Shown here: positions 1 to 56,414 of the stretch, in pieces
Layout of the letters: each line of letters begins with the position of its first letter
How positions within the stretch are numbered: the stretch's first letter is position 1
Assembly: GCA_964520905.1 (NCBI GenBank)
Contig: CAZFQL010000001.1
Location: forward strand, 183,216 to 247,215
DNA from: an uncultured Chlorobiaceae bacterium
Lineage (GTDB): Bacteria > Bacteroidota > Ignavibacteria > UBA10030 > SZUA-254
Direction of reading: 5' to 3'
Length of the DNA: 64,000 nt
The notes under the pieces: generated by a model
Seen by the model: the letters and a program-made list of their open reading frames with translations, nothing else
What the model was told of the DNA's origin: nothing
The model's database searches: none
Position numbers and translations under genes: made by a program

Positions 1-1143
1 TTGCCAGAACCTGTATAACCAACTATAGCTATAGTCGTGCCTTGAGGAATTTCGAGATTAATATTTTTTAGTGTCGGTGATTGCGCGTTATTATGAGTGA
101 AGGAAACATTCCGAAACTCTATTCTTCCCTGAATATCTTTTATAGAAAAATTTGTTTGATGGGTATCGCGTATATCCGGCTGGGTGTCCATAATCTTCAT
201 CAATCTTCTCAGCGAAGCCGCACCTTGCTGAAGAAGATTCGTCACCCAACCGAATGCGATCATGGGCCAAATCAAAAGTGTGAGATATCCGAAGAACGCC
301 GTAAGCGTACCGATGGACATTTCACCGTTAATGACTTTCAGACCGCCCACGTATACAATGATAACGAGCGAAGAGCCGACGAGCAAAAACATCAGGGGCC
401 AGAGTATCGATTGGATTCTTGCTAAGACGAGATTTTTCTTAAGATATTCCCAGCTCAATTTTTTAAAGCGATCTATCTCATACTCTTCGCGCACGTATGC
501 TTTCACAATTCTTATGCCTGATAAATTTTCCTGTGCGCGTGTGGTGAGAATGGAAAATTGTTCCTGCCGTTCTTCGAATTTTTTGTGAATTTGTTTTCCA
601 AGTTTATAAACAGCATAAGAAACAAGCGGCATAGGGATAAGAGCGTAAAGCGTCAACTGCCAGTTTGTTAGAAACATCATCACGAGAACCATAGAGAGCG
701 TCATGATAGTATCGCTTGGATACATGATGCCGGGACCGACCACGTTGCGTACCGAACCGATGTCGTTCGTAGCGTGCGCCATCAGATCACCGGTTGGCGT
801 GTTCTGAAAATACGAGAGCGAAAGTTTCTGGATGTGTTTAAGAAAATCATTTCGCAGATCAAACTCAATATGCCGCGAAACAACGATGATTGTTTGTCGC
901 GTAAGATAAGTGAAAATACCGGCGATAAGATTTAACGCGACAAGAGAGGCGGCATAAATAAGCAGATTTGTTCCATCGATGTTTTTTGTTTCAAGTCCGA
1001 TTTTCAATTTATCGATAGCATTACCGACAATCCGCGGCTGGAAGACGGTGAAGACATTACTCATCACAACTGTGAGGAGTCCCCACAACAGCGTGCGTTT
1101 GTATTTTTTAAGATATGGGATTAAGCGGAGTAATGATTTCATA
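1..1143 (-). CDS. ABC exporter permease/ATP-binding protein (MsbA-like), N-terminal portion; gene runs off the window start
   Basis: The ORF track omits it because there is no stop codon inside the window. My own minus-strand translation from the ATG at 1141-1143 gives MKSLLRLIPYLKKYKRTLLWGLLTVVMSN..., a six-helix ABC exporter transmembrane domain. It is followed by GRIEFRNVSFTHNN...LEIPQGTTIAIVGYTGSG, the start of Walker A, at the window edge. Confidence 0.75.
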
Positions 1144-1197
1144 TAGTTCTGATAAGCAACTCACATCCAACATAAGTTTAAATTCGAACGTGAGCCG

Positions 1198-1244
1198 CAC
1201 TTTAAAGATACGAAACTATTACATAAATTTCTTGGGGGGCAGAG
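1198..1244. repeat. Left copy of an imperfect direct repeat flanking the VapBC cassette (partner at 1989-2061)
   Basis: The 11-mer cactttaaaga is exact in both copies (1198-1208 and 1989-1999). A 34-nt core, agatacgaaactattacataaatttcttgggggg (1206-1239), matches 2023-2056 at 31/34. The right copy carries a 23-nt insertion. Confidence 0.6.
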
Positions 1245-1655
1245 CTATATTGATCGCTGAAGAATTTGATTCGGTGTTTTTCTCCCTCGCGTAGTTCGAT
1301 CAAAATGCTCGTCGTAACTGACAATCGAGAGATCATATTTTATTGCAGCAACGTACTGGTATGCATCGTCAAAATCAAGTTTAAATTCCCGAGATGCTTC
1401 GATGACAGATTTTAGATCCTGAACCGAAAGAGTCAACGCCGATATTCCGCCATTAAGAATTACATCGTCGACAAATTGCTCGAATGCAATATGTTGATGA
1501 CGCTGGAAAAGTAACAATCCGATTGAATGTAATGCAAAGTCACTAATATAGAAATTGATATTTCCATTGAGGAGAAGAAGTGATTTTGCTTCCGCAGATT
1601 TCTCTTGGTCTAATATTATTTCCAAGAAAATGTTTGTGTCGAGAAGAATGTTCAC
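1245..1655 (-). CDS. PIN-domain toxin (VapC-like) of a type II TA pair
   Basis: 136 aa with the MNILLDTNIF... N-terminus typical of PIN domains. It overlaps the upstream small gene by 4 nt. Confidence 0.75.
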   Translation of the reverse strand: MNILLDTNIFLEIILDQEKSAEAKSLLLLNGNINFYISDFALHSIGLLLFQRHQHIAFEQFVDDVILNGGISALTLSVQDLKSVIEASREFKLDFDDAYQYVAAIKYDLSIVSYDEHFDRTTRGRKTPNQILQRSI

Positions 1656-1912
1656 TTTTCTCTGATTCTTAATTTGGTAATGTCATGTTGAAGATCAACA
1701 GATGTGTACGTACCTCGCATATTTTTAAGCGCTCCCGCCCAATCAAATTTTAATGTTTTATGTTCCCGATGCTGGTGCTTTTTGATCAAAAATTCGATAA
1801 AGTCCTCGATTTCTTGACGCAAAGATGGGGATAATTGCTTAATTTTTTCTTCGATGTAACTCATTGTTATCTCTCGCAATGTCATTTTAATATACGAAGA
1901 GAATTGAATCAA
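1652..1912 (-). CDS. Antitoxin partner of the PIN toxin (small DNA-binding/antitoxin-like protein)
   Basis: 86-aa ORF immediately upstream of, and overlapping, the PIN gene, in classic antitoxin-toxin order. Confidence 0.55.
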   Translation of the reverse strand: MIQFSSYIKMTLREITMSYIEEKIKQLSPSLRQEIEDFIEFLIKKHQHREHKTLKFDWAGALKNMRGTYTSVDLQHDITKLRIREK

Positions 1913-1988
1913 GTCAACCTTGCGAAAAGCAACTTGCGAAAAGCAACCTTATTTAATCATTTAAATCATAAGCGTTAAATGAAATGAT

Positions 1989-2061
1989 CACTTTAAAGAA
2001 TTTCCAGAAAAGTCGTATTCAAAAGATACAAAACTATAACATAAATTTCTTGGAGGGAGTT
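1989..2061. repeat. Right copy of the direct repeat flanking the VapBC cassette; abuts the stop codon of the acyl-CoA ligase gene
   Basis: See 1198-1244. The copy ends 1 nt before the TGA (complement, 2062-2064) of the 2062-3582 gene. Confidence 0.6.
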
Positions 2062-3582
2062 TCAGGTTATCTGAATAATATCTCGTACTCTTTCGGTAAT
2101 CGTTCTGAAGTCAATCTTGCCGCTACCTGTTTTCGGCATCTCTGAGAGAACAATAAACTTGCTCGGGATTGCAATCTTGGGAAGTTGTCCCGACATTTTT
2201 TGAAGAATTGCTTTCTCATCAATCTGTTGTGTAACGGCAGCAACAATCCGGGATCCACGCAAGGCATCCGGCACTTCGACAACACAGCACTCAACATCGG
2301 CAGGAAGCAGATGTTCAAGAACATCTTCCACTTTTATCAGAGACACCATCTCTCCGCCGATCTTAAGAAAGCGTTTCAATCTTCCAACATGCCACAGATA
2401 ACCATCGGCATCCATATATCCCATATCACCGGTATCGTACCAGCCATGACGAATGCTCAACGATGTTTGCTCAAAATCATCAAAGTACCCTTTCATCACA
2501 TTATCGCCTTTGACAAGTATTTTACCTATTTCTCCAACTTTGCACTCTTCACTGGTTTCATAATTCTCTACTCTTACCTTGACGCCGTCAATCGGTCTGC
2601 CAACACTACCGGGACGATTATACTCTAATGTATTAACCGTAATCGCAGGACTTGTTTCGGTCGCTCCGTATGCTTCGAGTAAAATCTTATTATGCCTTTT
2701 CATGAATTCCTCCCTTAATGCATCCGGACACTTGTCCGCACCCGAGAGAAGTATGCGTGTAGATTTGAAATCGCCCGGCTTCGAATTCCTGAGATATCCC
2801 CAGAAGAACGTAGGTGTTCCAGCCATTAACGTGACATTTTCTTCACGAACGATATCACATATAGTTTTAAAATCCAACGGGTTGGCATATGTTACAATTG
2901 TCATCCCGACTATCAGCGGAACCCATAGATTTGCAGTCTGACCGAATACATGGAAGTATGGAAGGTTAGCCAGAAAAATATCATCTGATGAAAAAGAATA
3001 TGCTTTTGACAAACTTTCATAGTTGGAGAAAATATTTCTATGTGTAAGCTGAACAGCTTTCGGATCTTTTTCGCTTCCACTGGTAAATAGAATCAGAAGA
3101 GTATCATTTTCATTGCCGCGATGAATTCTTTTTAGGAGTCGCTCAACCGGAAGGCCTATGGTTAATATTGCTTTCATCTTATCTAATAGAGTTACAGACT
3201 TCATGATATCTTCGAGATAAATCATACCGTCAACATGAGGACAATTAATTTTCGCAAGAAGTGCTTTTGAGGTGATTATAGTCTTGAACGCACATTTCTT
3301 TTGAGCGAATTCACAGTTCATTGCAGCGCCAGTTGAGTAGTTGATCATCACCGGAATCCGGCCGCTCATAAGCGTGCCTAATATCGATAAAACTGATCCG
3401 GCTGAATTTGGCAGCATAATTCCAAGAAAACCAGGAGCGTATTTCTGAAATTTTTTAAAAAGAATGAGTGCGCCGATCAATGCGCGTTTGTAGGTCACCC
3501 GGCGATCGAGAGTTCTATCTATAATTGCTAATTTCTTCTCGTATTGTTTTGCAATTCGGACAAATTGTTGATGTAATAACAT
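2062..3582 (-). CDS. AMP-dependent synthetase/ligase (acyl-CoA or acyl-ACP synthetase family)
   Basis: 506 aa carrying the adenylate-forming motifs TSGSEKDPKAV, YGATETSP, GWYDTGDMGYMDADGYLWHVGR and a C-terminal PKTGSGKIDFR. Confidence 0.85.
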   Translation of the reverse strand: MLLHQQFVRIAKQYEKKLAIIDRTLDRRVTYKRALIGALILFKKFQKYAPGFLGIMLPNSAGSVLSILGTLMSGRIPVMINYSTGAAMNCEFAQKKCAFKTIITSKALLAKINCPHVDGMIYLEDIMKSVTLLDKMKAILTIGLPVERLLKRIHRGNENDTLLILFTSGSEKDPKAVQLTHRNIFSNYESLSKAYSFSSDDIFLANLPYFHVFGQTANLWVPLIVGMTIVTYANPLDFKTICDIVREENVTLMAGTPTFFWGYLRNSKPGDFKSTRILLSGADKCPDALREEFMKRHNKILLEAYGATETSPAITVNTLEYNRPGSVGRPIDGVKVRVENYETSEECKVGEIGKILVKGDNVMKGYFDDFEQTSLSIRHGWYDTGDMGYMDADGYLWHVGRLKRFLKIGGEMVSLIKVEDVLEHLLPADVECCVVEVPDALRGSRIVAAVTQQIDEKAILQKMSGQLPKIAIPSKFIVLSEMPKTGSGKIDFRTITERVRDIIQIT

Positions 3583-3615
3583 AGTCTATTTTATTTATTT
3601 AATTGTTTGTTTGAT

Positions 3616-3864
3616 CTAAGTTTCAACAGATATTTCCAACTGAGAAAGAAAAGAATGCTTATTAGTATCATTGGTCCATAGATTACCAAATATACCGGCA
3701 GTAGAAATCTTTGCCAATATCAATATACATAAAATATCACAGGAGTAAAAAAGATAATTCAGCCAAACAATTCCCATCGCCATGAGATAATAAGAGCAAA
3801 AACTATCACTCCCGTTGGAATCAAATGTATTGTTATAGCAGGCAGAGTTTCCCGGAAAACGCAC
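3616..3864 (-). CDS. Hypothetical small protein (GTG start); weak call
   Basis: Only an ORF in otherwise unassigned DNA, with one hydrophobic stretch; no recognisable motif. Confidence 0.2.
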   Translation of the reverse strand: MRFPGNSACYNNTFDSNGSDSFCSYYLMAMGIVWLNYLFYSCDILCILILAKISTAGIFGNLWTNDTNKHSFLSQLEISVET

Positions 3865-3952
3865 TCCCTATTGAATACATCGAGAGTAAAAATGGATGTG
3901 AATAGTGCAGAGAGAATGCACAAAGCGCGTAGAGACCAGAAAAGAATTTTAT

Positions 3953-4030
3953 TTATCCAATATTCTCAAACCCCGTATGCTTATGCAGCGCTTTCGGCAC
4001 AATCACTTTTCCTTCGGGGTCTGGTAATAC
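3953..4030 (-). pseudogene. Relic duplicate of the serS 3' end (last ~23 codons plus stop)
   Basis: About 85% nucleotide identity to 4662-4739, the true serS 3' end. My minus-strand translation gives ...PDPEGKVIVPKALHKHTGFENIG* against SerS ...TPEGKVIVPKVLHKYTGFEVIG*. The similarity begins exactly at the stop codon. Confidence 0.7.
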
Positions 4031-4071
4031 CGGGCAATTAATTCATCGAATAAATTCAAGCTAATTTGGGT

Positions 4072-4368
4072 TTAGCGCTTTGATTTTTTCTTTAGGATAT
4101 CTCGCGATGTATGAAGCACAGCAAGAATATCAATTTGATCTGGTTTGATGTAATAAATTATTCGAAATGGATGTTCAATAACTTCGCGAATCTGTTTAAT
4201 GTTAAATTCCGGTACGGACCTACCCGAAAGAGGAAAATCTGTAATTTGTTGTGATCGTCGTGTTATGCGATCAACTATTCTTGTCGCGTAATCGGCAGAT
4301 GTATGAGATATGTAATCGTGGATGCTTTGCAGATGATCGGTGGCTGTATCTGTCCAATGGACATTCAC
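4072..4368 (-). CDS. RelE/ParE-family toxin (type II TA)
   Basis: 98 aa of the size and composition expected for RelE/ParE; overlaps the upstream 68-aa gene by 4 nt. Confidence 0.7.
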   Translation of the reverse strand: MNVHWTDTATDHLQSIHDYISHTSADYATRIVDRITRRSQQITDFPLSGRSVPEFNIKQIREVIEHPFRIIYYIKPDQIDILAVLHTSRDILKKKSKR

Positions 4369-4571
4369 TTTTGTAAACCGAACTTTGCGCGGATTTCTTT
4401 TACATCTTTCGTTCGCCCTGCCTTGCTATCAGCTAACCCAGCTTCAATCGCCTGTCGAACATAGATTTCATACATGAGATCATCCCAAGTCGCCTTGCTG
4501 GGAAGTTTTTCTACAATCTTTTGCGCTTCTTCTTTTACCATGCCCATAAATAAATCCTTATAAATATTCAC
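4365..4571 (-). CDS. Antitoxin partner of the RelE/ParE toxin
   Basis: 68-aa ORF directly upstream of, and overlapping, the toxin gene. Confidence 0.55.
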   Translation of the reverse strand: MNIYKDLFMGMVKEEAQKIVEKLPSKATWDDLMYEIYVRQAIEAGLADSKAGRTKDVKEIRAKFGLQK

Positions 4572-4579
4572 TTGTCAGT

Positions 4580-4608
4580 ATAATACAAAAATATCGTGTT
4601 TGTTTCAA
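4580..4608 (-). promoter_or_regulatory. Putative sigma70-like promoter of the RelE/antitoxin operon; near-leaderless
   Basis: On the minus strand, TTGAAA (complement of 4603-4608), a 17-nt spacer, then TATTAT (complement of 4580-4585). The antitoxin ATG follows about 9 nt after the -10 element. Confidence 0.35.
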
Positions 4609-4658
4609 GATTATGTATGCCGTGAGATACAGACTGAAGATGGTTATCGTTTTTCCCT

Positions 4659-5924
4659 CTATCCAATCACCTCAAACCCAGTATATTTATGCAACACTTT
4701 TGGCACAATCACTTTTCCCTCCGGTGTCTGGTAATGCTCTATGAGTGCCGCAACAACTCTTGGCAGCGCCAGCGCTGAGCCGTTTAGTGTGTGAATAAAT
4801 TCCGGCTTTCCTTCTCCGCGCGGACGGAAACGGATATTCATTCGCCGCGCCTGAAACGATTCAAAGTTGCTAATTGACGAAACCTCGAGCCATCGCTGCT
4901 GCCCGATAGACCATACCTCAAGATCGTATTTCTTCGTCTGTGTAAATCCCATGTCGCCCGTGCACATGAGAAGCGTGTGATAATGCAGTCCCAATTTCTG
5001 GAGAAGCAGTTCGGCATCTTCGCGTAAACTCTCAAGTTCGTTGTACGAGACACCCGGGTGGACAAATTTTACTAATTCAACTTTATCGAACTGGTGCAGT
5101 CTGTTTAAACCGCGAACATCCTTACCATACGAACCGGCTTCGCGGCGAAAGCATGGCGTGTACGCACAATATTTTACAGGGAGCTGATCTTCCTTCAGAA
5201 TTTCGTCTCGGTGAATGTTTGTTACCGGAACTTCCGCTGTCGGAACGAGATACAATTCATCCTTAGTTGCAACGTACATCAAATCTTCTTTATCTGGAAG
5301 TTGTCCTGTGCCTGTTGCGCTGTTTGCATTCACCATAAGCGGCGGCTGAATTTCTTTGTATCCTCGCTTCGCGGCTTCATCAAGAAAGAAATTGATCAAC
5401 GCACGCTGTAACTGTGCACCCTGTCCTTTATATAAAGGAAAGCCCGCGCCTGAAATCTTTACACCACGCTCAAAGTCGATGATATCAAGCTTTTCAGCAA
5501 GTTCCCAGTGAGGTTTCGGTTTGAAATCAATTACAGGTGCTTCGCCCCACTTTGAAATTTCTTTGTTGTCGGTCGGCAGTTTTCCAACAGGAACAGATGG
5601 GTGTGGAATATTTGGAATAGTGAGCAGGAGTTGATTCAAAGATTTTTCAATCAGCGCGAGGGCATCATCAATAGATTTGATCTCTGTTTTCACTTCATCC
5701 ATTTGTGAGATCGCTGTTGCGGCATCTTTTTTTTCACGCTTCAGTTTACCGATTTCATCTGAAACGACGTTGCGTTTGTTTTTTAATACTTCAACCTTCT
5801 GAAGAAGTTCTCTTCGTTGTAAATCAAACTTCAGCGCTTCATCAATATTATCTTCGCCTCCTTTTTTTAGGATGCCTTCCTTAACTAAGCCTGGGTGTTC
5901 ACGAATGAATTTAATATCAAGCAT
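4659..5924 (-). CDS. serS: Seryl-tRNA synthetase
   Basis: 421 aa with an N-terminal coiled-coil and a class II catalytic core; full-length SerRS architecture. Confidence 0.95.
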   Translation of the reverse strand: MLDIKFIREHPGLVKEGILKKGGEDNIDEALKFDLQRRELLQKVEVLKNKRNVVSDEIGKLKREKKDAATAISQMDEVKTEIKSIDDALALIEKSLNQLLLTIPNIPHPSVPVGKLPTDNKEISKWGEAPVIDFKPKPHWELAEKLDIIDFERGVKISGAGFPLYKGQGAQLQRALINFFLDEAAKRGYKEIQPPLMVNANSATGTGQLPDKEDLMYVATKDELYLVPTAEVPVTNIHRDEILKEDQLPVKYCAYTPCFRREAGSYGKDVRGLNRLHQFDKVELVKFVHPGVSYNELESLREDAELLLQKLGLHYHTLLMCTGDMGFTQTKKYDLEVWSIGQQRWLEVSSISNFESFQARRMNIRFRPRGEGKPEFIHTLNGSALALPRVVAALIEHYQTPEGKVIVPKVLHKYTGFEVIG

Positions 5925-6082
5925 TTATTTCTTTAGTCCTTTTCAGTGTTAATGTTTCTCTCGTTAAGTATATATAATGTTGTTATAGATCTACAAAGAA
6001 AATCCTAAGCACGAAAAACTAACATCTAAGTAATATTTGAATCCCAATTCCCCAACCCGGCTTCTAGTATATGTATTTTGGA

Positions 6083-6130
6083 ATTGGATTTTAGAATTTG
6101 TTTAGGATTTAGAGATTAGGATTTAGAATT
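6083..6130. repeat. Three degenerate tandem copies of GGATTT(T)AGA(R)WT in the serS upstream intergenic region
   Basis: ggattttagaattt, ggatttagagatt and ggatttagaattt at 6083, 6096 and 6118. The same word occurs inverted at 21100-21260. Confidence 0.4.
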
Positions 6131-6137
6131 TTCGCGT

Positions 6138-7040
6138 TCATGATTTCAGATGTAAATTATTTTCGTTTTGTTTGTTAAACGCCTCAAGTTGGTTTTTAAA
6201 GACCGTAAGCCCATGTTCAACGCCGGACATTTTCACATCGAGTTCGGTTTGTGCTTTAAGTATGATCAATCCGGATTTTAAAGGGCGCGGCGCCGGTTGT
6301 ATAAAAGTAGAAGACTTGACCGGAATTATCAGCTTTTTATTGAAATTAAATACGCGTGCAAGTGTAAGAGCAAAATCATATCTGCTGATCATGTCGGAAC
6401 CGGCGATATGATAAACGCCTGTTCGATCAAGCTCGATAATTTTTAAGATTGCATAGGCGAGATCATCGGCAAGTGTTGGATTACCGATCTGATCGTCAAC
6501 CACACGAATGGGCTTGCCGTCTTTCAGATTATTATACAGCCAGAGCGCGAAGTTCGATTTAACATTCAGTCCGAGTCCGTAGAGTACCATTGTTCGAATG
6601 ATCGTAGCGGGAACACCACTGGTTAGCAGAAGATTTTCACTTGCAAGCTTTGTTCTTCCGTAGTAACTGATAGGATTCGGACGATCGACTTCGCTGTAAG
6701 GACCACTTTTGCCGTCGAACACATAATCAGTGGAAAGATGAATGAGTTTCGCACCCACAAGTTTTGCTGCATAAGCCAGGTTTTCAACAGATCCAACATT
6801 TACCTGCCAGGCAAGTGCGCGTTCCTTTTCACAAAGATCAACATCGGTTACCGCGGCTGTATGCACAATAACATCCGGCTCGAATTCATCTATAACTTTT
6901 CTAACATCCTGTCGGTGGGTCAAATCGATTTTACGGTAAGGCAAAATTTCTTCGTCGAAGACAGAGTGTTCCTCCAATGATAATAATAAGAGAGGATAAC
7001 GTGTTCGTGAAAGAATCTCAACAGTCTTCTGTCCAAGCAA
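6138..7040 (-). CDS. NAD(P)-dependent reductase, RmlD (dTDP-4-dehydrorhamnose reductase)-like; the real N-terminus probably lies upstream (to about 7079)
   Basis: STDYVFDG and the YxxxK motif SYYGRTK. The Rossmann motif KRIIVTGSNGLLG is encoded in-frame upstream of the TTG start called in the track. Confidence 0.7.
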   Translation of the reverse strand: MLGQKTVEILSRTRYPLLLLSLEEHSVFDEEILPYRKIDLTHRQDVRKVIDEFEPDVIVHTAAVTDVDLCEKERALAWQVNVGSVENLAYAAKLVGAKLIHLSTDYVFDGKSGPYSEVDRPNPISYYGRTKLASENLLLTSGVPATIIRTMVLYGLGLNVKSNFALWLYNNLKDGKPIRVVDDQIGNPTLADDLAYAILKIIELDRTGVYHIAGSDMISRYDFALTLARVFNFNKKLIIPVKSSTFIQPAPRPLKSGLIILKAQTELDVKMSGVEHGLTVFKNQLEAFNKQNENNLHLKS

Positions 7041-7081: not shown

Positions 7082-7915
7082 TTATCGTAAACTCTCCTCC
7101 AATAACGTTGAAATATCTGTTTTATCATCGCGATATTTAATAATAACAGGAGCGTATATCGAGAGTTTGTTTTCTTGCGCAAAGGGATGATTAATTTGTC
7201 TGTTCCCGGCAACAACAACTGCGCCTTCCGGGATAATGAGTTGTGATGTGTTGGATTTTTTGTAGATTGCTCTACGCACAAGGTCATATACGGGCGTTCC
7301 ACCGGTGAGAATGACGCCGGCACCGAGGACTGCTCGCTGTTTCACAGTAGTACCTTCATAAATTCCGCAGTTGCCTCCTATGAATACGTCATCTTCAATA
7401 ATTACAGGCATCGAGCCGATTGGTTCCAACACACCGCCGATCTGTACTGCGGCGCTGCAATGAACTCTTTTACCTATTTGCGCGCATGATCCGACGAGCG
7501 CGTGTGAATCGATCATAGTTCCTTCGTCAACGTACGCACCGATGTTCACGTAAGATGGCGGCATCATAACTACTCCCTTGGCTATATATGCGCCGTCTCT
7601 CACGACGCTTCCGCCCGGGACAATTCGAACACCTTGATTGACGGTAAATTGCCGCACTCCCATTGTGTCTTTATCAAAGAAATTAAATACATCGTCTCCG
7701 GAGAATTCCCGAAGCTCACCGGCGCGAAAAGCAAGCAGTATTCCTTTTTTTACCCATGTGTTGACCTGCCATGAATCATTCTGAAAATCTGCGGAACGGA
7801 TTTCACCGCGATTCAGGGCAAGCTTCAATTGATCTACTGCCTGCTGTACTTCCTCTCTGTCGATTTTGTCTATAGGAATTTCAAACAGCCGCTCAATGGT
7901 TTGTTGTAGGATCAT
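7082..7915 (-). CDS. dapD: 2,3,4,5-tetrahydropyridine-2,6-dicarboxylate N-succinyltransferase
   Basis: 277 aa, collinear with E. coli DapD. The hexapeptide-repeat region ...[30 protein letters not shown]... is recognisable. Confidence 0.9.
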
Positions 7916-8805
7916 ATAAGCTTCAACCCTTTCAATATCTTTTTCATCAGAGGTCTGTGTTTATCGCTTAAGGGAACAAGCGGTAAGCGATATAGTTCTT
8001 TTATAACCCCCATTTGCGCAAGAACTGCTTTCACGGGAATCGGACTTGATTCGATGAAGTTGAAGTTCATCAAATCAAAAAGTTTATATTGAATTTTTAA
8101 TGCCAGTGGAAAATTTCCTTTCAAGCACAGCCGGATCATATCGGAAAAAAGTTTTGGCGCTTCATTTGAAACCACGGAAACAATTCCATCGGCTCCAAGT
8201 GCGATTAACGGGAGGGCGATTGCGTCATCGCCAGACCAGACGCCGAACCCTTTAGGTCGGTGGCGAATTATTTCCATTATCTGTCCGAAATTACCCGATG
8301 CTTCTTTGATACCGGCGATGTTCGGGAATTTTTCTGCCAGCCGGAGCGTGGTTGCCGCCTCTAAGTTGCTGGAAGTTCTTCCGGGAACATTGTAAATAAC
8401 AATCGGCGCATTGATTTCATTCGCTATCGCCGCATAATGCCGGTAGAAGCCCTCCTGTGTGGGTTTATTATAGTACGGCGCGACGGACAGTATTCCATCG
8501 GCTCCCGCTTTTAGCGCATTCTTTGCGTGGTCGATCGCTTTGCTTGTTGAATTGCTGCCGGCTCCGGCAATTATTTTCACTCGACCCCTTGCATGTTTGA
8601 CGACGATGGAAACAACTTGTTCCTGCTCCTCTTCGGTTAGCGTAACGCTTTCACCGGTTGTGCCGGTAGGAAGAATTGCTTCTACACCGCCCTTGATTTG
8701 ATATTCGATTATTTTCTTGAGAGCGGCTTCATCAACCTTGCCGTTAGTGGTGAATGGTGTGACGAGCGCAGTGCCTGTTCCTTTAAATAATAATGTTCGT
8801 TTCAT
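7912..8805 (-). CDS. dapA: 4-hydroxy-tetrahydrodipicolinate synthase
   Basis: 297 aa with the TIM-barrel DapA N-terminus [16 protein letters not shown] and [10 protein letters not shown]. Confidence 0.9.
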
Positions 8806-18633: not shown

Positions 18634-18745
18634 TTAAGGGCAGTTCTAAAAATTCAAAAACGTTTTGCGAACTCTGCGAATTCTTTGCGTTCTCTGCGTT
18701 TATATTTTTAAATAACATATATTTAGGACTGCCCTTAATTAAATT
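18634..18745. promoter_or_regulatory. Inverted repeat aattaagggcagt/actgcccttaatt bracketing four tandem TGCG(W)(W)(Y)TC repeats, just upstream of the methyltransferase start
   Basis: aattaagggcagt at 18633-18645 and its complement at 18728-18740. tgcgaactc, tgcgaattc, tgcgttctc and tgcgttt recur at a 9-10 bp period. TAAATTTG (18741-18748) resembles a Bacteroidota-type -7 promoter box. Confidence 0.35.
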
Positions 18746-18765
18746 TGCAAGGAAACTTTAGGACA

Positions 18766-19746
18766 ATGAAAGTAAAAGAACCATTATTCGATTATATAAG
18801 CCCCGACATTGATTATCAAATCAAAAAGGGCGACTGCTTGACTGTTCTTCAAAAAGTTGAGGACGGAAAATTTGACCTTATTTTAACTTCACCGCCTTAT
18901 AACGTTGGCAAGTCATACGAGACAAAGACGAGCATTGAAAAATACTTAGAGACACAGGACGAAATTATAAGCGAACTTGTTCGGACACTTTCTGACAAAG
19001 GAAATCTCTGTTGGCAGGTTGGTAACTATGTCGACAAAGGAGAAATTTTTCCCCTTGACATTTACTATTACCAAATCTTTAAAAAGTATGGACTAAAACT
19101 TCGCAATCGAATTATTTGGCATTTCGGACACGGGCTTCACGCTTCAAACCGTTTCAGTGGACGCTATGAAACATTGTTATGGTTCAGCAAGACAGACGAC
19201 TATATTTTTAATCTTGACAATGTTAGAGTTCCTTCAAAGTATCCAGGTAAACTACATTTCAAAGGACCAAAAAAAGGATTGCCTTCCGGCAATCCGCTTG
19301 GGAAAAACCCAAGCGATATTTGGGAAATTATTCAACAAGACTGGGAAAATGGTATGTGGAATATTCCTAATGTAAAATCTAATCATCCAGAAAAAACAAA
19401 CCACCCTTGCCAGTTTCCAATAGAACTTGTTGAACGTTGCGTTCTTGCTTTGACAGAAGAAAACAGTTGGGTTCTTGACCCTTTCTCTGGTGTAGGCTCA
19501 ACTGTGATTGGAGCTATAAAAAACGACCGCAACGCAATGGGAATAGAAAAGGAAGAAAAATATTGCAAAATTGCCAAACAAAGAATTAAAGATTACAACG
19601 AAGGAAATTTAAAATTCAGACCTATTAATAAACCAATTCATAAGCCGACAGCAAAAGATAAAATTGCTCAAATACCAAAAGAATGGTTAGAACTTGAACA
19701 TATTAACGGCAATGGAAAATCTAACGGCTTAAACGGAAAACATTAA
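18766..19746 (+). CDS. DNA methyltransferase, beta-class N4-cytosine/N6-adenine type (SPPY)
   Basis: Motif IV LTSPPY lies near the N-terminus and motif I DPFSGVGST near the C-terminus, which is the beta-class circular permutation. Start set at the ATG preceded by AGGA. The region is AT-rich relative to its flanks. Confidence 0.85.
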   Translation: MKVKEPLFDYISPDIDYQIKKGDCLTVLQKVEDGKFDLILTSPPYNVGKSYETKTSIEKYLETQDEIISELVRTLSDKGNLCWQVGNYVDKGEIFPLDIYYYQIFKKYGLKLRNRIIWHFGHGLHASNRFSGRYETLLWFSKTDDYIFNLDNVRVPSKYPGKLHFKGPKKGLPSGNPLGKNPSDIWEIIQQDWENGMWNIPNVKSNHPEKTNHPCQFPIELVERCVLALTEENSWVLDPFSGVGSTVIGAIKNDRNAMGIEKEEKYCKIAKQRIKDYNEGNLKFRPINKPIHKPTAKDKIAQIPKEWLELEHINGNGKSNGLNGKH

Positions 19747-20360
19747 TGAAAATAGCACAAAAATATTCGCATTTAAACGGAGAAGAATATCTTATCGTTC
19801 ATCACAAAAAACTTTATAAAGAAATCGTTGAAACTATTGAGAGCATTGATGCTTCAAAGTTTATGACTAAAGAGAGTAAAGAAAAAACCATGAGCGGAAA
19901 AATGCTTTATAGTCCTATTGAACTCAATAAAACATTCAATACTAGATTCAACAAACTTGGTTGGAATGAAAGTCGTTATCAATATTACATAACAACAGAG
20001 CAAAAATTATTACCTGAATTAATCCTGTTACCTTATGAGAAGCAGAAAGAATTTCTTATTTCAAAAGGAATTAAGTCGCCAATATCCTCTTACAAACAAA
20101 CAGATTTTGTGAAAGAACAAATTGCCGTTGAGGTTCAATTTGGTAAATATGCTTTTGTTGCATTTGACCTATTCGTAAAACATTTGCTTTTTTATTCTGG
20201 TGGTGTAATTAATCTTGGTATTGAAGTTTTGCCGACAAAGAAAATGCAATCACAAATGAGTAGCGGTGTTGCTTACTATGAAGGTGAAGTTTATAATGTA
20301 TTGCGACACGGACGAAATAATCCACCTGTTCCTTTACTTATTTTAGGCATTGAACCATAA
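19746..20360 (+). CDS. Type II restriction endonuclease, BglII/BstYI-like (putative)
   Basis: Start overlaps the MTase stop (TAATG). IAVEVQFGKYAF resembles the BglII E-V-Q active-site segment. 204 aa, a typical type IIP endonuclease size. Confidence 0.5.
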   Translation: MKIAQKYSHLNGEEYLIVHHKKLYKEIVETIESIDASKFMTKESKEKTMSGKMLYSPIELNKTFNTRFNKLGWNESRYQYYITTEQKLLPELILLPYEKQKEFLISKGIKSPISSYKQTDFVKEQIAVEVQFGKYAFVAFDLFVKHLLFYSGGVINLGIEVLPTKKMQSQMSSGVAYYEGEVYNVLRHGRNNPPVPLLILGIEP

Positions 20361-53088: not shown

Positions 53089-53481
53089 ATGAAACGCATA
53101 TCATATTTGTTTTTACTTATAACCATGCTTTTCGGGTCGGTGAAAATCTATGCAAAATGGTCAACACCACCTATTATTGTGTTATCCTTTCTGTTAAGGA
53201 GGATATTCCTTTTTTCTCAATCATTTGATGTGTTGGAAAACTACCAGAACCCCTTCAATAATTCTGCCTTGATCGCGTACTACATTTCCAGCAATAGCCG
53301 TGTGAAAATCACTCTATATGATTTGCTAGTCCGAATGGTTAGAACCCTTGTCAATGAAAGAAAAAAGAATGGAACTTACAGCATTTGTTTCAAGATAGAC
53401 AATCTTACTAGTGGCACCTATTTCGCTGTATTGAAAACGAATTCAAATACATTAACTCACAAATTACTTCTCATCAAATAA
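53089..53481 (+). CDS. Minimal T9SS substrate: signal peptide plus a C-terminal sorting domain with essentially no passenger domain
   Basis: ATG preceded by AGGAG. MKRISYLFLLITMLFGSVKIYA, then about 25 aa, then a CTD homologous to that of the next gene (...LTSGTYFAVLKTNSNTLTHKLLLIK). Confidence 0.5.
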   Translation: MKRISYLFLLITMLFGSVKIYAKWSTPPIIVLSFLLRRIFLFSQSFDVLENYQNPFNNSALIAYYISSNSRVKITLYDLLVRMVRTLVNERKKNGTYSICFKIDNLTSGTYFAVLKTNSNTLTHKLLLIK

Positions 53482-53496
53482 CGAAAGGAGGTGATT

Positions 53497-54372
53497 ATGA
53501 AAATATTCCATATAGTTTTTTCGTTCATTGCACTTACTTCGTTTGTAATGTCCCAGACACCAGACTCGCTCAATTTTTTTCCCGCACACGCTGGTGATGT
53601 ACGGCAGTACCGTTCACAATTCACCGGCGAGATTACAATAACAGAATACCTTGATAAGGATTCAACTGATCAATTTGGGAACATATTTATCTGGTATCAT
53701 AATGCTGGCTGGGGAACTTTTAATATTTATAAAATAGATTCGTCAGGTAATGTTTATATACTCTATTCAGTGAGCGACACTGGTTATGTGCCGTTACTTT
53801 ATAAACTAAGTGCAGACACTGGGACTGTGTGGACATATCTAAAAAGAGATAGAGATAGTATTCTTGCTAAAGTCGTGGGGATTTTCCCAGGTTTCGTATA
53901 TGGTAAACAAGTAACAGTTAAAAAAATTGAATATACAAAATATTCAGAATTCGGTTCGTTTTGGTTAGGCAACCGATATTTGGCGACGGGATTTGGAATG
54001 GTACAATGGGACATTGAACCATCGGATGTTTATTATCTTGCAGGGGCAATAATAAATGGTGTACACTATGGAACAATTGTTTCTGTGAAAACAGATTTAA
54101 CTTTTCCCGAATCGTTTGAAGTGTTAACGAATTATCCCAACCCGTTTAACAATGGAACTGTTATTTCATATACTATTTCATCGGAAAGCCATGTGGAAAT
54201 TACGATCTACGACGTTTTAGGACGGGTTGTAAAAACACTTGTCAATGAAAATCAACAAAAAGGAGAGCATCAAATTTCTTTTAATGGAAATGGTCTTACC
54301 AGCGGTATTTATTTTGCTGTTCTACAAACTGTTTCAAAGACACTAACTCACAAATTACTTCTCATCAAATAA
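53497..54372 (+). CDS. T9SS-secreted hypothetical protein
   Basis: Signal peptide, and a C-terminal sorting domain NYPNPFNNGTVISYTI...LTSGIYFAVLQTVSKTLTHKLLLIK. SD sequence aaggagg lies 5 nt upstream. Confidence 0.6.
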   Translation: MKIFHIVFSFIALTSFVMSQTPDSLNFFPAHAGDVRQYRSQFTGEITITEYLDKDSTDQFGNIFIWYHNAGWGTFNIYKIDSSGNVYILYSVSDTGYVPLLYKLSADTGTVWTYLKRDRDSILAKVVGIFPGFVYGKQVTVKKIEYTKYSEFGSFWLGNRYLATGFGMVQWDIEPSDVYYLAGAIINGVHYGTIVSVKTDLTFPESFEVLTNYPNPFNNGTVISYTISSESHVEITIYDVLGRVVKTLVNENQQKGEHQISFNGNGLTSGIYFAVLQTVSKTLTHKLLLIK

Positions 54373-54386
54373 TACTGGAGGTTGTT

Positions 54387-56414
54387 ATGTTTACCCGAAT
54401 AGCAGTACACTTAGTTTGTGTTGTTATTTTATCCTTAACAACAGCCTATGCTGCGGACGAAAATTCTTGTGGCGTGCAAACTCAGCAGCAGCAAACGCAA
54501 ATAGGCGGCGCTTATTGCACAGCATCTGGAACTATAAAAGCGGTCTTCATTTTTATTGACTTCAAGGATGATATGGAAGATCGCACGAATTCAACGTGGC
54601 CCGTTGGCACAGGACCAAACTTCTTGAATAGTATTGTGGATGAAACCGAAACGCAAAACTCCGGAACGTATGCAAACGTTTCAACATTTTTTAACGATCA
54701 GAGTTTCGGACAATTCAAAATGATTGGGAAGGCATATTACGTTCAAGCACCTGAATCTCTTGCTTATTACAAAAGAGTGCATCCATGGGATGAAGTTGCA
54801 TATTCATCACAAGACGTAATTCAAATTCTCGACCAATCAGTTAATTTTTCAGATTTTGATAGATGGATAAGCAGTTACTACAGCCACTCACCCGGTACAG
54901 ATGGAAAAGTAGATATGGTATTCTTTTGCTATCGAAGGTGGTATAGCGAAGCTCCAAGTTTTTCATATGAGGGTTGGTGGCCAGCAGATTTGCCGGGTGA
55001 CGTTTATGTCGATAGTGGTGTGAGGAGAATTGGTGGTGCCCAGACAGTTGATGTTCTGAATATGATTCAATATCCTGATTGGGGAAGAAGCGTACAGAAT
55101 GTGGTGCACGAATTCGGTCATGTATGGGGTTTAAACCATCAATACGCTCCTGGAATGTGGGCACTAATGGGTCAACGATATCCGAGCACGAGCAGTTTTA
55201 TGAATGCCTTTGAAAGAGCACAACTTGGATGGATTGTTTATCATGATATTACTTCTTCCCAAATAGCGTCATTGCGTGATTTTGGAGCCTATGGCGATGC
55301 GTATAGAATTTCATTAGGCAATGGAGAATATTTTATTTTGGAAAATCATCAACGAAACAGCATTTATGATAATCCTGATGTAAATGTTCCCGCAGCAAAA
55401 GGATTATATACTCTTCGCCAATTTTCATTTCAGTATTCTCCTTATGCAGGCAATTTAAAAATTGAAACTGCTGATGGTCGTTTTAATTGGTCAAATCCAA
55501 GTTGGGGGATTTTTCCAGGGACAAATGTTTTTTACCCCACATTTCAAAGAGGAGTCAGCAATAGAACACTAGGTTCAAATGACCGAGACTTGTTGTCTGC
55601 TGTTAATCCTAATACTGGTCAACAAGGTTACTATTATTTAATTGCTAAAGTTGATGAAATATCGGGACAGACAGTCTATGGTTCTTTCTACAAAGGTGAT
55701 GGGAAAGATGCTTTTAATTTGGGATTTAACACTGTTTTCACACCTTGGAGTAATCCTTCTGCTTGCTCAAAAAATGGAACACTATCAAATGTTGGAATAG
55801 AAATATTACCATCATCTACTTCAACTTTGGATATTCAGTTTTTCATCGGAAATCCTCTAAGCGCTTCCCCGTCAAGACCTCAAGATGTCCGAACAACATC
55901 AGTTGTAAATGGTAGCACCTCACTAGTTTGGACTGCAAATCCAGAAACAGATGTTTCTGGATACAACATCTATCGCGGTGTTGCTTACTCTGGCAGCAGT
56001 GAACCAACTTACACTAAGATCAACTCATTGATCGTGACCACAATCTCCTACACAGACAACAATTACGAGTCCATCGCAGGGCTTCCACAAAACATCGATC
56101 TCTACCACCGATATAGAATAACTGCCGTGGATAACGAAGGTAAAGAATCCGTCAAGTCAGAATACGTTGATGCCTATTTCACTCATGTTGCAAATGGCTC
56201 AATTAGTTCCAATCGGACTTGGCAAATTGACGTCAGATTAGTTTCTGATGCAACAGTCACAAGCGGTAATATCCTCACAGTTTTTCCCAGTACAACAGTA
56301 AAGGTTGTCAATGGTTATACATTAACCATCAACGGTAAACTAATCGCAAAAGGAGACCCAAACAATAGAATTACTTTTACATCCAATAATTCAAATCCAT
56401 CTGCAGGCGATTGA
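54387..56414 (+). CDS. Secreted metzincin-type zinc metalloprotease with an FN3-like domain and the start of a beta-helix; terminated by an in-frame TGA that is followed in-frame by 56496-57965
   Basis: Signal peptide. HEFGHVWGLNH is a complete HExxHxxGxxH metzincin motif. A YNIYRG... FN3-like segment follows. The TGA at 56412-56414 is the only interruption of the 54387-57965 reading frame. Confidence 0.7.
   Translation: MFTRIAVHLVCVVILSLTTAYAADENSCGVQTQQQQTQIGGAYCTASGTIKAVFIFIDFKDDMEDRTNSTWPVGTGPNFLNSIVDETETQNSGTYANVSTFFNDQSFGQFKMIGKAYYVQAPESLAYYKRVHPWDEVAYSSQDVIQILDQSVNFSDFDRWISSYYSHSPGTDGKVDMVFFCYRRWYSEAPSFSYEGWWPADLPGDVYVDSGVRRIGGAQTVDVLNMIQYPDWGRSVQNVVHEFGHVWGLNHQYAPGMWALMGQRYPSTSSFMNAFERAQLGWIVYHDITSSQIASLRDFGAYGDAYRISLGNGEYFILENHQRNSIYDNPDVNVPAAKGLYTLRQFSFQYSPYAGNLKIETADGRFNWSNPSWGIFPGTNVFYPTFQRGVSNRTLGSNDRDLLSAVNPNTGQQGYYYLIAKVDEISGQTVYGSFYKGDGKDAFNLGFNTVFTPWSNPSACSKNGTLSNVGIEILPSSTSTLDIQFFIGNPLSASPSRPQDVRTTSVVNGSTSLVWTANPETDVSGYNIYRGVAYSGSSEPTYTKINSLIVTTISYTDNNYESIAGLPQNIDLYHRYRITAVDNEGKESVKSEYVDAYFTHVANGSISSNRTWQIDVRLVSDATVTSGNILTVFPSTTVKVVNGYTLTINGKLIAKGDPNNRITFTSNNSNPSAGD

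Follow-up and report, generated by a model that had tools for sequence, protein, structure and literature searches.

Restriction-modification (RM) gene complexes are known to undergo 'insertion with long target duplication', which leaves unique direct repeats of 30-500 bp around the insert, involves no linked mobility genes and has an unknown mechanism (Nobusato et al. 2000, Gene 259:99; Furuta, Abe and Kobayashi 2010, NAR 38:2428, PMC2853133). In a 2014 review, the same group lists this mode for RM systems only and ascribes the mobility of toxin-antitoxin (TA) genes to known mobile elements (PMC3874152). For effector-immunity arrays of Rhs, contact-dependent inhibition (CDI) and type VI secretion (T6SS) systems, homology-facilitated illegitimate recombination was suggested as the mechanism (PMC5361080). 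Chromosomal TA modules are patchily distributed and clearly horizontally transferred, yet mostly lack a nearby transposase or integrase, and their mobility is a long-standing loose end. Minimal mobile elements, reportedly described by Saunders and Snyder in 2002 and by Snyder et al. in 2007, are said to hold differing cargo (RM, TA, unknowns) between the same conserved genes, with homologous recombination of the flanks being presumed. Here we analyze a VapBC TA cassette in a 64,000-nt stretch of DNA (the window) from an uncultured Chlorobiaceae bacterium (contig CAZFQL010000001.1), where the cassette lies between two copies of the region upstream of an ATP-binding cassette (ABC) exporter gene. 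The locus is an insertion-type polymorphism with a long target duplication of variable length. A crossover, we infer, produced it.

A repeat search paired 1193-1239 with 2011-2057 on either side of VapBC, 47 nt at 83% identity, with a core of 36 nt that is identical at 33 positions. Local alignment of the cassette flanks scored 57, where shuffled sequences reached at most 28 (z 16.9), bearing out the imperfect direct repeats described in an earlier note on this DNA. The ungapped core, CCAAGAAATTTATGT[A/T]ATAGTTT[C/T]GTATCTTT, is found at 1204-1235 and 2022-2053; allowing up to 3 mismatches there are exactly 2 matches in the 64 kb, with 0 expected from 100 shuffles. The left copy (L) starts 5 nt past the vapC stop codon (1245-1247) and the right copy (R) 5 nt past the stop codon of an acyl-CoA ligase-like gene (2062-2064), which the note had described as abutting the right repeat. 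The size of the duplication is about 36-40 nt, or 47 nt should a 26-nt block in R represent an indel that arose later. The 11-mer cactttaaaga, on which the note had also relied, does occur in both flanks, but it is 26 nt out of register in R and is not conserved in the related locus L082 described below; it may be a chance match or a trace of a 26-nt indel.

Repeats of this kind need not be the footprint of an insertion. They could arise by chance, belong to a dispersed repetitive extragenic palindromic (REP) or miniature inverted-repeat transposable element (MITE) family or represent the target-site duplication of a transposon, and some repeat pairs in related loci are indeed REP-like or of low complexity (L018, L043, L114, L136, L171). 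A dispersed REP/MITE family was rejected on the count of two copies in 64 kb. A classical transposon or insertion sequence was likewise rejected: the duplications found at this and the comparable insertions measure 36-77 nt, far above the length of transposon target-site duplications, and neither terminal inverted repeats nor a transposase accompany them, in agreement with the note's judgement that the repeat is too long for this origin. Together with the alignment score and the empty sites in relatives, this already refutes such explanations and we attach next to no probability to them.

We compared the window with serS (seryl-tRNA synthetase) loci from 80 genomes and 80 metagenome contigs (160 loci), and refer to these related loci by labels such as L001, L082, L094 and L173. 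The repeat corresponds to conserved DNA upstream of the ABC exporter gene, since the 3' part of its core is a motif, CTTTCGTATCTT, that is common to many species upstream of this gene; judging from position and conservation, it is probably the promoter. An 11-nt promoter-like motif of the core recurs upstream of another window gene, while nothing else of the repeat does. L001 and L094/L095, which like the window belong to the Ignavibacteria and whose serS DNA is 83% and 86% identical to that of the window, respectively, have the repeat once, upstream of the ABC gene, and lack VapBC; they thus represent the single-copy empty sites which the note had proposed to look for. L082 carries the same VapBC between two repeat copies at the same place, without the ligase. 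No genome was found that holds both copies minus the TA genes.

In a six-way alignment of these sites, the R copies and the empty sites share native upstream sequence (GAAACTCCC), after which the R copies enter the left end of the cassette. The L copies begin past the right end of the cassette, and the L copy of L082 continues into the native hairpin of the 5' untranslated region (5'UTR) of the empty sites; this hairpin, CCCGAAAG...CTTTCGGG, is carried by the orthologous ABC 5'UTRs of L001, L094 and L082, and the window's own ABC 5'UTR is too diverged to align. Such a pattern of flanks is the signature of a target duplication. The R copy of the window is 94% identical to the single copy in L001, with homology extending through the ligase stop codon to 2068. 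Taken together, the comparison supports the earlier reading of the repeats as the insertion footprint of a TA minicassette (0.78 kb), and that reading is largely right. As both the window and L082 carry VapBC, the insertion is old or horizontally shared rather than recent.

The VapBC cassette proper spans 2019-1240 and comprises a promoter, a candidate operator, the antitoxin and the PIN toxin. Its upstream region, put at roughly 80 bp in the note, is in fact about 150 nt long (1868-2019). A promoter scan placed a sigma-70-like promoter with the boxes TTGACT-17-TATATT at 1917-1889. Next to it, 1920-1947 hold a 14-nt unit (TTGCGAAAAGCAAC) twice in tandem, a candidate operator. The arrangement is that of a type II VapBC system, with a DUF2281 open reading frame (ORF) upstream of the PIN ORF, an overlap of 4 nt and a pairing that recurs in homologous loci. 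Both ORFs are intact in the window, where toxin and antitoxin activity are predicted from sequence. GC content is 0.33-0.38 in the cassette as opposed to 0.43-0.48 in the flanking genes. The nearest VapC relative is 89% identical and occupies the same site in L082.

All genes within 1-6000 of the window are on the minus strand and are transcribed in the order serS, ParD-like/ParE, AMP-binding ligase, DUF2281/PIN, ABC exporter gene. In about 120 related loci serS is directly followed by the ABC gene (gap of -4 to about 270 nt), and about 20 other loci have variable cargo between the two, giving at least 12 different cargos over about 140 loci. The cargos include RM genes, methyltransferases, proteins with tails of the type IX secretion system (T9SS) and unknowns, as well as DUF559-like, DinB-like and 23S-IVP-like genes that were read from the sequences without Pfam. 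With the same conserved flanks and different cargo, the serS|ABC junction is an integration hotspot. Because serS and ABC adjoin in so many relatives, the whole 3.5 kb at 1143-4658 reads as inserted cargo. This includes the ligase, which is absent at the serS|ABC site from every other locus compared and has no flanking repeats (z 0.8, shuffled-flank alignment); it is a separate lineage-specific cargo and not part of the ancestral site. The pre-insertion site of VapBC was thus single-copy as the note had assumed, but did not extend from the 3' end of the ligase to the ABC start. At 2062-2095 the last ten or so ligase codons and the stop codon are homologous to native intergenic DNA of L001, and the inserted ligase gene therefore appears to have taken its 3' end from the target site.

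The note had also suggested a search for other TA cassettes with the same flank architecture, and such cassettes exist. A ParDE cassette of 0.63 kb lies 2 kb from VapBC, between repeats of 76-77 nt that are 84% identical (z 33.9). Here the repeated segment is the end of a coding region: serS has its true 3' end in the upstream copy, and the downstream copy, at 3951-4028, is a frame-broken relic of it. Pfam assigns ParE_toxin to parE (E 3.5e-16), and a promoter, TTGAAA-17-TATTAT, is located at 4608-4580 in the left spacer of the cassette. ParDE also resides between serS-tail copies in L094/L095/L178 and in L173, and DUF2283 cassettes do so in L082 and L173; the L082 cassette consists of the DUF2283 gene and an upstream small ORF. 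A profile of the native serS tail detected extra tail copies only in these lineages among the 160 loci, and empty sites with a single tail are present in L001 and many other loci.

An unbiased self-comparison of all 2.08 Mb of sequence yielded three further repeat-flanked cases. In L101 (1-902) a HEPN/MNT cassette is inserted at the 5' end of hisA, between repeats that include the hisA ribosome-binding region and start codon and are identical at 37 of 38 positions (97%); the upstream repeat runs to the end of the locus sequence, so that its length is at least 38 nt. The corresponding empty site is found in L006 (4268-4330). L173 presents an array, namely serS tail, DUF2283, tail, ParD/ParE, truncated tail fused to a hairpin, a T9SS-protein gene, hairpin, an orphan N6_N4 methyltransferase, hairpin and ABC, in which the methyltransferase sits between hairpin copies. 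The third case is a three-gene ABC/MOSC block in L002. By contrast, 12 other hotspot cargos in relatives have no flanking repeats, and neither does the window's own ligase (z below 3.5). Repeat length across the cases is 36-47, 77, at least 38 and 36 nt, and this variability argues against an enzyme with a fixed stagger. A census of the compared loci, covering 2 Mb, using hidden Markov models built from the VapC and ParE matches returned only the cassettes already known.

Several observations accompany these cassettes. In L082 (about 5792-6004) the vapB ortholog has a premature stop codon and vapC is intact; parE has a premature stop in L094 (7555-7677) and is intact in L178 (793-1104), a contig of 99.9% identity. 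Toxin or antitoxin genes are thus predicted to be inactivated in some lineages. The hairpin of the L173 array is a perfect stem-loop, CTTCCCGAAAGTT...AACTTTCGGGAAG, present three times (5364-5399, 7168-7203, 8114-8149) and separating the cargo genes upstream of ABC. The same element occurs once, in the ABC 5'UTR, in L001, L082 and L094. Its first copy in L173 is joined to the truncated serS-tail relic at a shared CCGAAAGT. In L001, a 47-nt stretch within a 502-aa ORF (8059-8104) is 83% identical to the parD start region (window 4561-4516; E 3.6e-6 in a small search) and may be due to chance or be a trace of a former cassette.

We wondered whether the repeats might instead be the attL and attR sites of site-specific integration. 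The units would then be non-autonomous elements resembling cis-mobilizable elements (CIMEs) or integron cassettes that are mobilised in trans, or addiction-protected remnants of larger elements that lost their integrase, with the serS 3' end as a typical target and the element supplying a replacement end. Integration into gene 3' ends with provision of a substitute end is classical, as seen with e14 and phage 21 in icd. In line with this, ParDE and DUF2283 are two different cassettes that both target the serS tail; their boundaries almost coincide, and they are stacked next to the gene, as expected from tandem accretion or an integron-like process. The L082 tail pair (89% identical overall) is exact over its first 29 nt and 83% identical over the remainder, like a core followed by a replaced gene end, and the L173 tail copies look like reciprocal hybrids, a pattern based on two or three informative sites. 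The window copies share identical runs of 10 and 17 nt.

On the other hand, the scanned proteins of the window included no recombinase, integrase or transposase, no integrase was found on the contigs of L082, L094 and L173, and all ORFs in 1-6000 were either assigned or devoid of a mobility domain in Pfam. Each cassette offers just 43-150 nt of non-coding DNA for recombinase binding. The left tail boundaries of ParDE and DUF2283 differ by about 5-10 nt plus an indel, and no sequence is common to the serS tail, the ABC promoter and the hisA start, the three targets. Single-strand folding of both strands of the four repeat regions gave no significant hairpin (z -1.3 to +2.0), and an integron cassette was rejected for want of an attC-like fold and of IntI/attI. 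An attC-like end common to ParDE and DUF2283 cassettes, considered as a candidate, was weak and not reproducible (p 0.015 in the window, 0.6 in L094). The ends of the VapBC cassette carry no inverted repeats, 1-6200 contains no Rfam family, and neither cassette had a DNA match in PLSDB that would point to a plasmid origin. We therefore regard site-specific integration as possible but rather unlikely.

Exchange between lineages is a further property of these units. From 4739 to 3991 (tail, ParDE and the start of the relic) the window is 87.8% identical to L173, reaching 94.6% in parD and 91.6% in parE, versus 74-76% in the flanking serS and 72-73% in ABC. The ParDE core (4621-4066) is about 96% identical to that of L094, whose flanks are at 84-85%, and about 93% identical to that of L173. 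The VapBC genes of the window and L082 share 89% identity compared to 80% for the flanks; even the 150-nt non-coding leader is 82.5% identical, whereas the native ABC 5'UTRs of the two cannot be aligned. Because the cassettes are far more similar than their flanking genes, the units are younger than their host lineages and have been exchanged among them along with the repeats. By serS, L001 and L094 are closer to the window than L082, yet they lack VapBC; alternatively, this distribution could be due to repeat-mediated recombination that removed VapBC from L001 and L094.

These data led us to a recombination-driven insertion with long target duplication as the explanation that we hold to be probable: VapBC would have inserted just 3' of a conserved TATCTT (the probable -10 element) upstream of ABC, thereby duplicating about 36-47 bp. 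We favor it because the duplicated segment is always a terminal piece of the adjacent conserved gene. A cassette would travel with a copy of a conserved neighbor gene's terminal segment attached to it and integrate by a crossover within this homologous segment, either in a Campbell-type event from a circle or by homology-facilitated illegitimate recombination from a linear fragment. Either route would leave the segment on both sides of the insert and both flanking genes functional. In the ParDE event the complete 3' end would have stayed fused to serS, with the second copy being displaced downstream and decaying as a relic. The repeats could then act as portable homology arms for exchange between genomes and for stacking into arrays. 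Direct repeats would also invite deletion, and we speculate, consistent with the data, that TA addiction opposes loss of the cassette. Such selection would go some way to account for the predominance of addiction-type modules among the repeat-flanked units found here.

Alternatively, the duplication might be made in situ, by a staggered double-strand break followed by fill-in or template switching that captures a free TA fragment. The copies would be identical at birth and their present identity of 83-92% would reflect age alone. Within each genome, both serS-tail copies have lineage-specific substitutions in common (GTGATTGTGCC for the window and GTAGTTGTACC for L082), as this scenario would have it, and the youngest example, L101, is nearly identical in its two copies. 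A role for double-strand breakage was proposed in the RM cases by Furuta et al. (PMC2853133). By itself, however, a break in situ accounts neither for the movement of ParDE into L173 along with tail copies nor for two cassette types at the same serS tail. Moreover, TA proteins are not known to cut DNA: PIN acts on RNA and ParE on gyrase. We consider this route quite improbable.

Several points weigh against recombination-driven insertion. Neither circular junctions nor a donor configuration nor intermediates of recombination were observed. The moderate identity of the repeat copies fits age and a diverged donor alike, and for the 77-nt serS tails the distances are too noisy to tell which copy is donor-derived. 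A recombinase encoded at another place in the genome might act in trans, the search having covered the 64-kb window and metagenome contigs. In L173 the T9SS-protein gene and the orphan methyltransferase are also bracketed by repeat copies, and L002 has a three-gene ABC/MOSC block between 43-nt repeats; long flanking repeats are therefore not exclusive to TA genes. Conversely, flanking repeats are absent at distant homologous cassettes, both VapBC at 59% identity (L083-L091) and ParDE at 73% (L174-L177). The available data do not cleanly separate import by recombination, a recombinase in trans and an in situ break.

Four TA families (VapBC, ParDE, DUF2283-type and HEPN/MNT), each lying between long duplicates of the end of the gene next to it, link TA mobility to a mode so far documented only for RM systems, the other class of addictive gene pairs. 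This suggests a shared logic in which insertion-duplication spares the flanking genes and is stabilised by post-segregational killing. Decayed ends of housekeeping genes could serve as markers for such insertions in metagenome-assembled genomes. A bolder proposal would be that the serS 3' end and the promoters or 5' ends of other conserved genes are recombination sites of an integrase-free, integron-like platform, which TA cassettes enter via host recombination by carrying the gene end as a homology arm, where they stack and where they block their own deletion by addiction. We think this unlikely, at best a tentative idea; if true, chromosomal TA genes would have a general way of spreading without mobile-element machinery that has not been described so far.

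Table 1. Features of the serS|ABC region of the window, with positions counted from the first nucleotide of the stretch.
Feature	Position	Strand	Remarks
ABC exporter gene, 5' part	1..1142	-	Pfam ABC_membrane, E 2.8e-53; conserved downstream flank of hotspot
Native 5'UTR of ABC gene	1143..1199	-	Hairpin predicted by folding; contiguous with L copy
Left repeat copy (L)	1200..1244	-	Core 1204-1239; copy of ABC upstream region now adjoining ABC gene; holds motif TTTCGTATCTT, conserved in many species upstream of ABC gene
vapC, PIN-domain toxin, 136 aa	1245..1655	-	Pfam PIN, E 9.7e-13
vapB-like antitoxin, DUF2281, 71 aa	1652..1867	-	Pfam DUF2281, E 1.8e-18; 4-nt overlap with vapC
Upstream region of VapBC cassette	1868..2019	-	Promoter TTGACT-17-TATATT 1917-1889; tandem 14-nt repeat 1920-1947
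Right repeat copy (R)	2020..2061	-	Core 2022-2057; displaced copy of ABC upstream region, contiguous with native upstream DNA
Acyl-CoA ligase-like gene	2062..3582	-	Pfam AMP-binding; lineage-specific cargo, no flanking repeats
Relic of serS 3' end	3951..4028	-	Reads PEGKVIVPKALHKHTGFENIG*; frame broken by upstream 1-nt deletion
ParDE cassette	4029..4658	-	Right spacer 4029-4071; parE 4072-4368; parD-like 4365-4571; left spacer 4572-4658
Functional serS 3' end	4659..4735	-	Upstream member of 77-nt direct repeat
serS (seryl-tRNA synthetase)	4659..5924	-	Pfam Seryl_tRNA_N and tRNA-synt_2b; conserved upstream flank of hotspot

Between the serS relic and the ligase start, some 370 nt (3583-3950) have no assigned function and could be debris of earlier cargo; an ORF of 82 aa located there (3616-3864) has no Pfam match and is not called in the public assembly. 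Elsewhere in the window, a BglII-like type II RM pair (N6_N4 methyltransferase and endonuclease, 18745-20360) lies between SIR2 and redoxin genes with about 600 nt of non-coding DNA upstream, and no direct repeats flank it (z -0.1). A third repeat family of the window was rejected as an insertion, as it represents two adjacent paralogous T9SS-tailed genes (53383-54390). These share a 99-nt 3' end at 76% identity (53383-53499 versus 54274-54390, also 55248-55284), the last 27 nt of which (ACTCACAAATTACTTCTCATCAAATAA) are identical. Their appearance is that of tandem paralogs, which gene conversion may have homogenised. In more distant genomes, GC-rich structured repeats of about 115 nt are found upstream of both of two paralogous ABC exporter genes, bracketing the first (L018, 11274-11386/13330-13442, 83%; L043, 11335-11449/13361-13475, 97%). 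They are unrelated to TA genes and look REP-like or like a duplicated leader.

How does the locus compare with the systems described so far? It resembles the RM insertions in being a small addiction-type unit without a linked mobility gene, between unique direct repeats of more than 30 bp, with empty sites in related genomes that align to both repeats, variable repeat length and repeats that overlap the ends of neighboring genes. Measured against the criteria of Furuta et al. for such insertions, the repeats exceed 30 bp, an empty site exists, the inserts of 0.63-0.78 kb are well under 20 kb, an integrase or transposase is not linked and the repeat is not high-copy within the 64 kb. The empty sites belong to different species (serS DNA 83-86% identical), where the original criteria used strains of the same species, and the cargo is not restriction and modification but type II TA genes (PIN/DUF2281; ParE and antitoxin). 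Unlike in the RM cases, moreover, the repeats are more diverged (83-92%), the cassettes stack into arrays, an essential gene has in one case been targeted at its coding 3' end, of which a relic remains, and cassettes together with their repeats are seen to have moved between lineages. A literature search returned no report of TA cassettes with long target duplication; its coverage was incomplete and this is weak negative evidence.

The effector-immunity arrays of Rhs, CDI and T6SS systems (Jackson et al. 2009; Kirchberger et al. 2017, PMC5361080) are similar in that an incoming module, which homology ties to a conserved gene upstream, displaces the old gene end downstream and successive events build arrays. 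There, however, the end that is displaced is the same toxin gene's variable toxic tip along with its immunity gene, whereas here it is a non-functional housekeeping 3' end or promoter copy and the module is an unrelated TA operon. The minimal-mobile-element model resembles the serS|ABC hotspot but predicts no duplication of flank ends. Integrons likewise carry sub-kilobase TA cassettes with their own promoters, in arrays that are separated by repeated sites and in which the newest unit is apparently nearest the fixed end; unlike them, the present locus has no IntI, attI or hairpin-forming attC, and its 'site' is host coding or promoter sequence. The cassettes described here are thus not categorically new. 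They extend a known and mechanistically unsolved mode of insertion to TA genes, and add to it the relics of gene ends, the arrays and the travel of cassettes together with their repeats.

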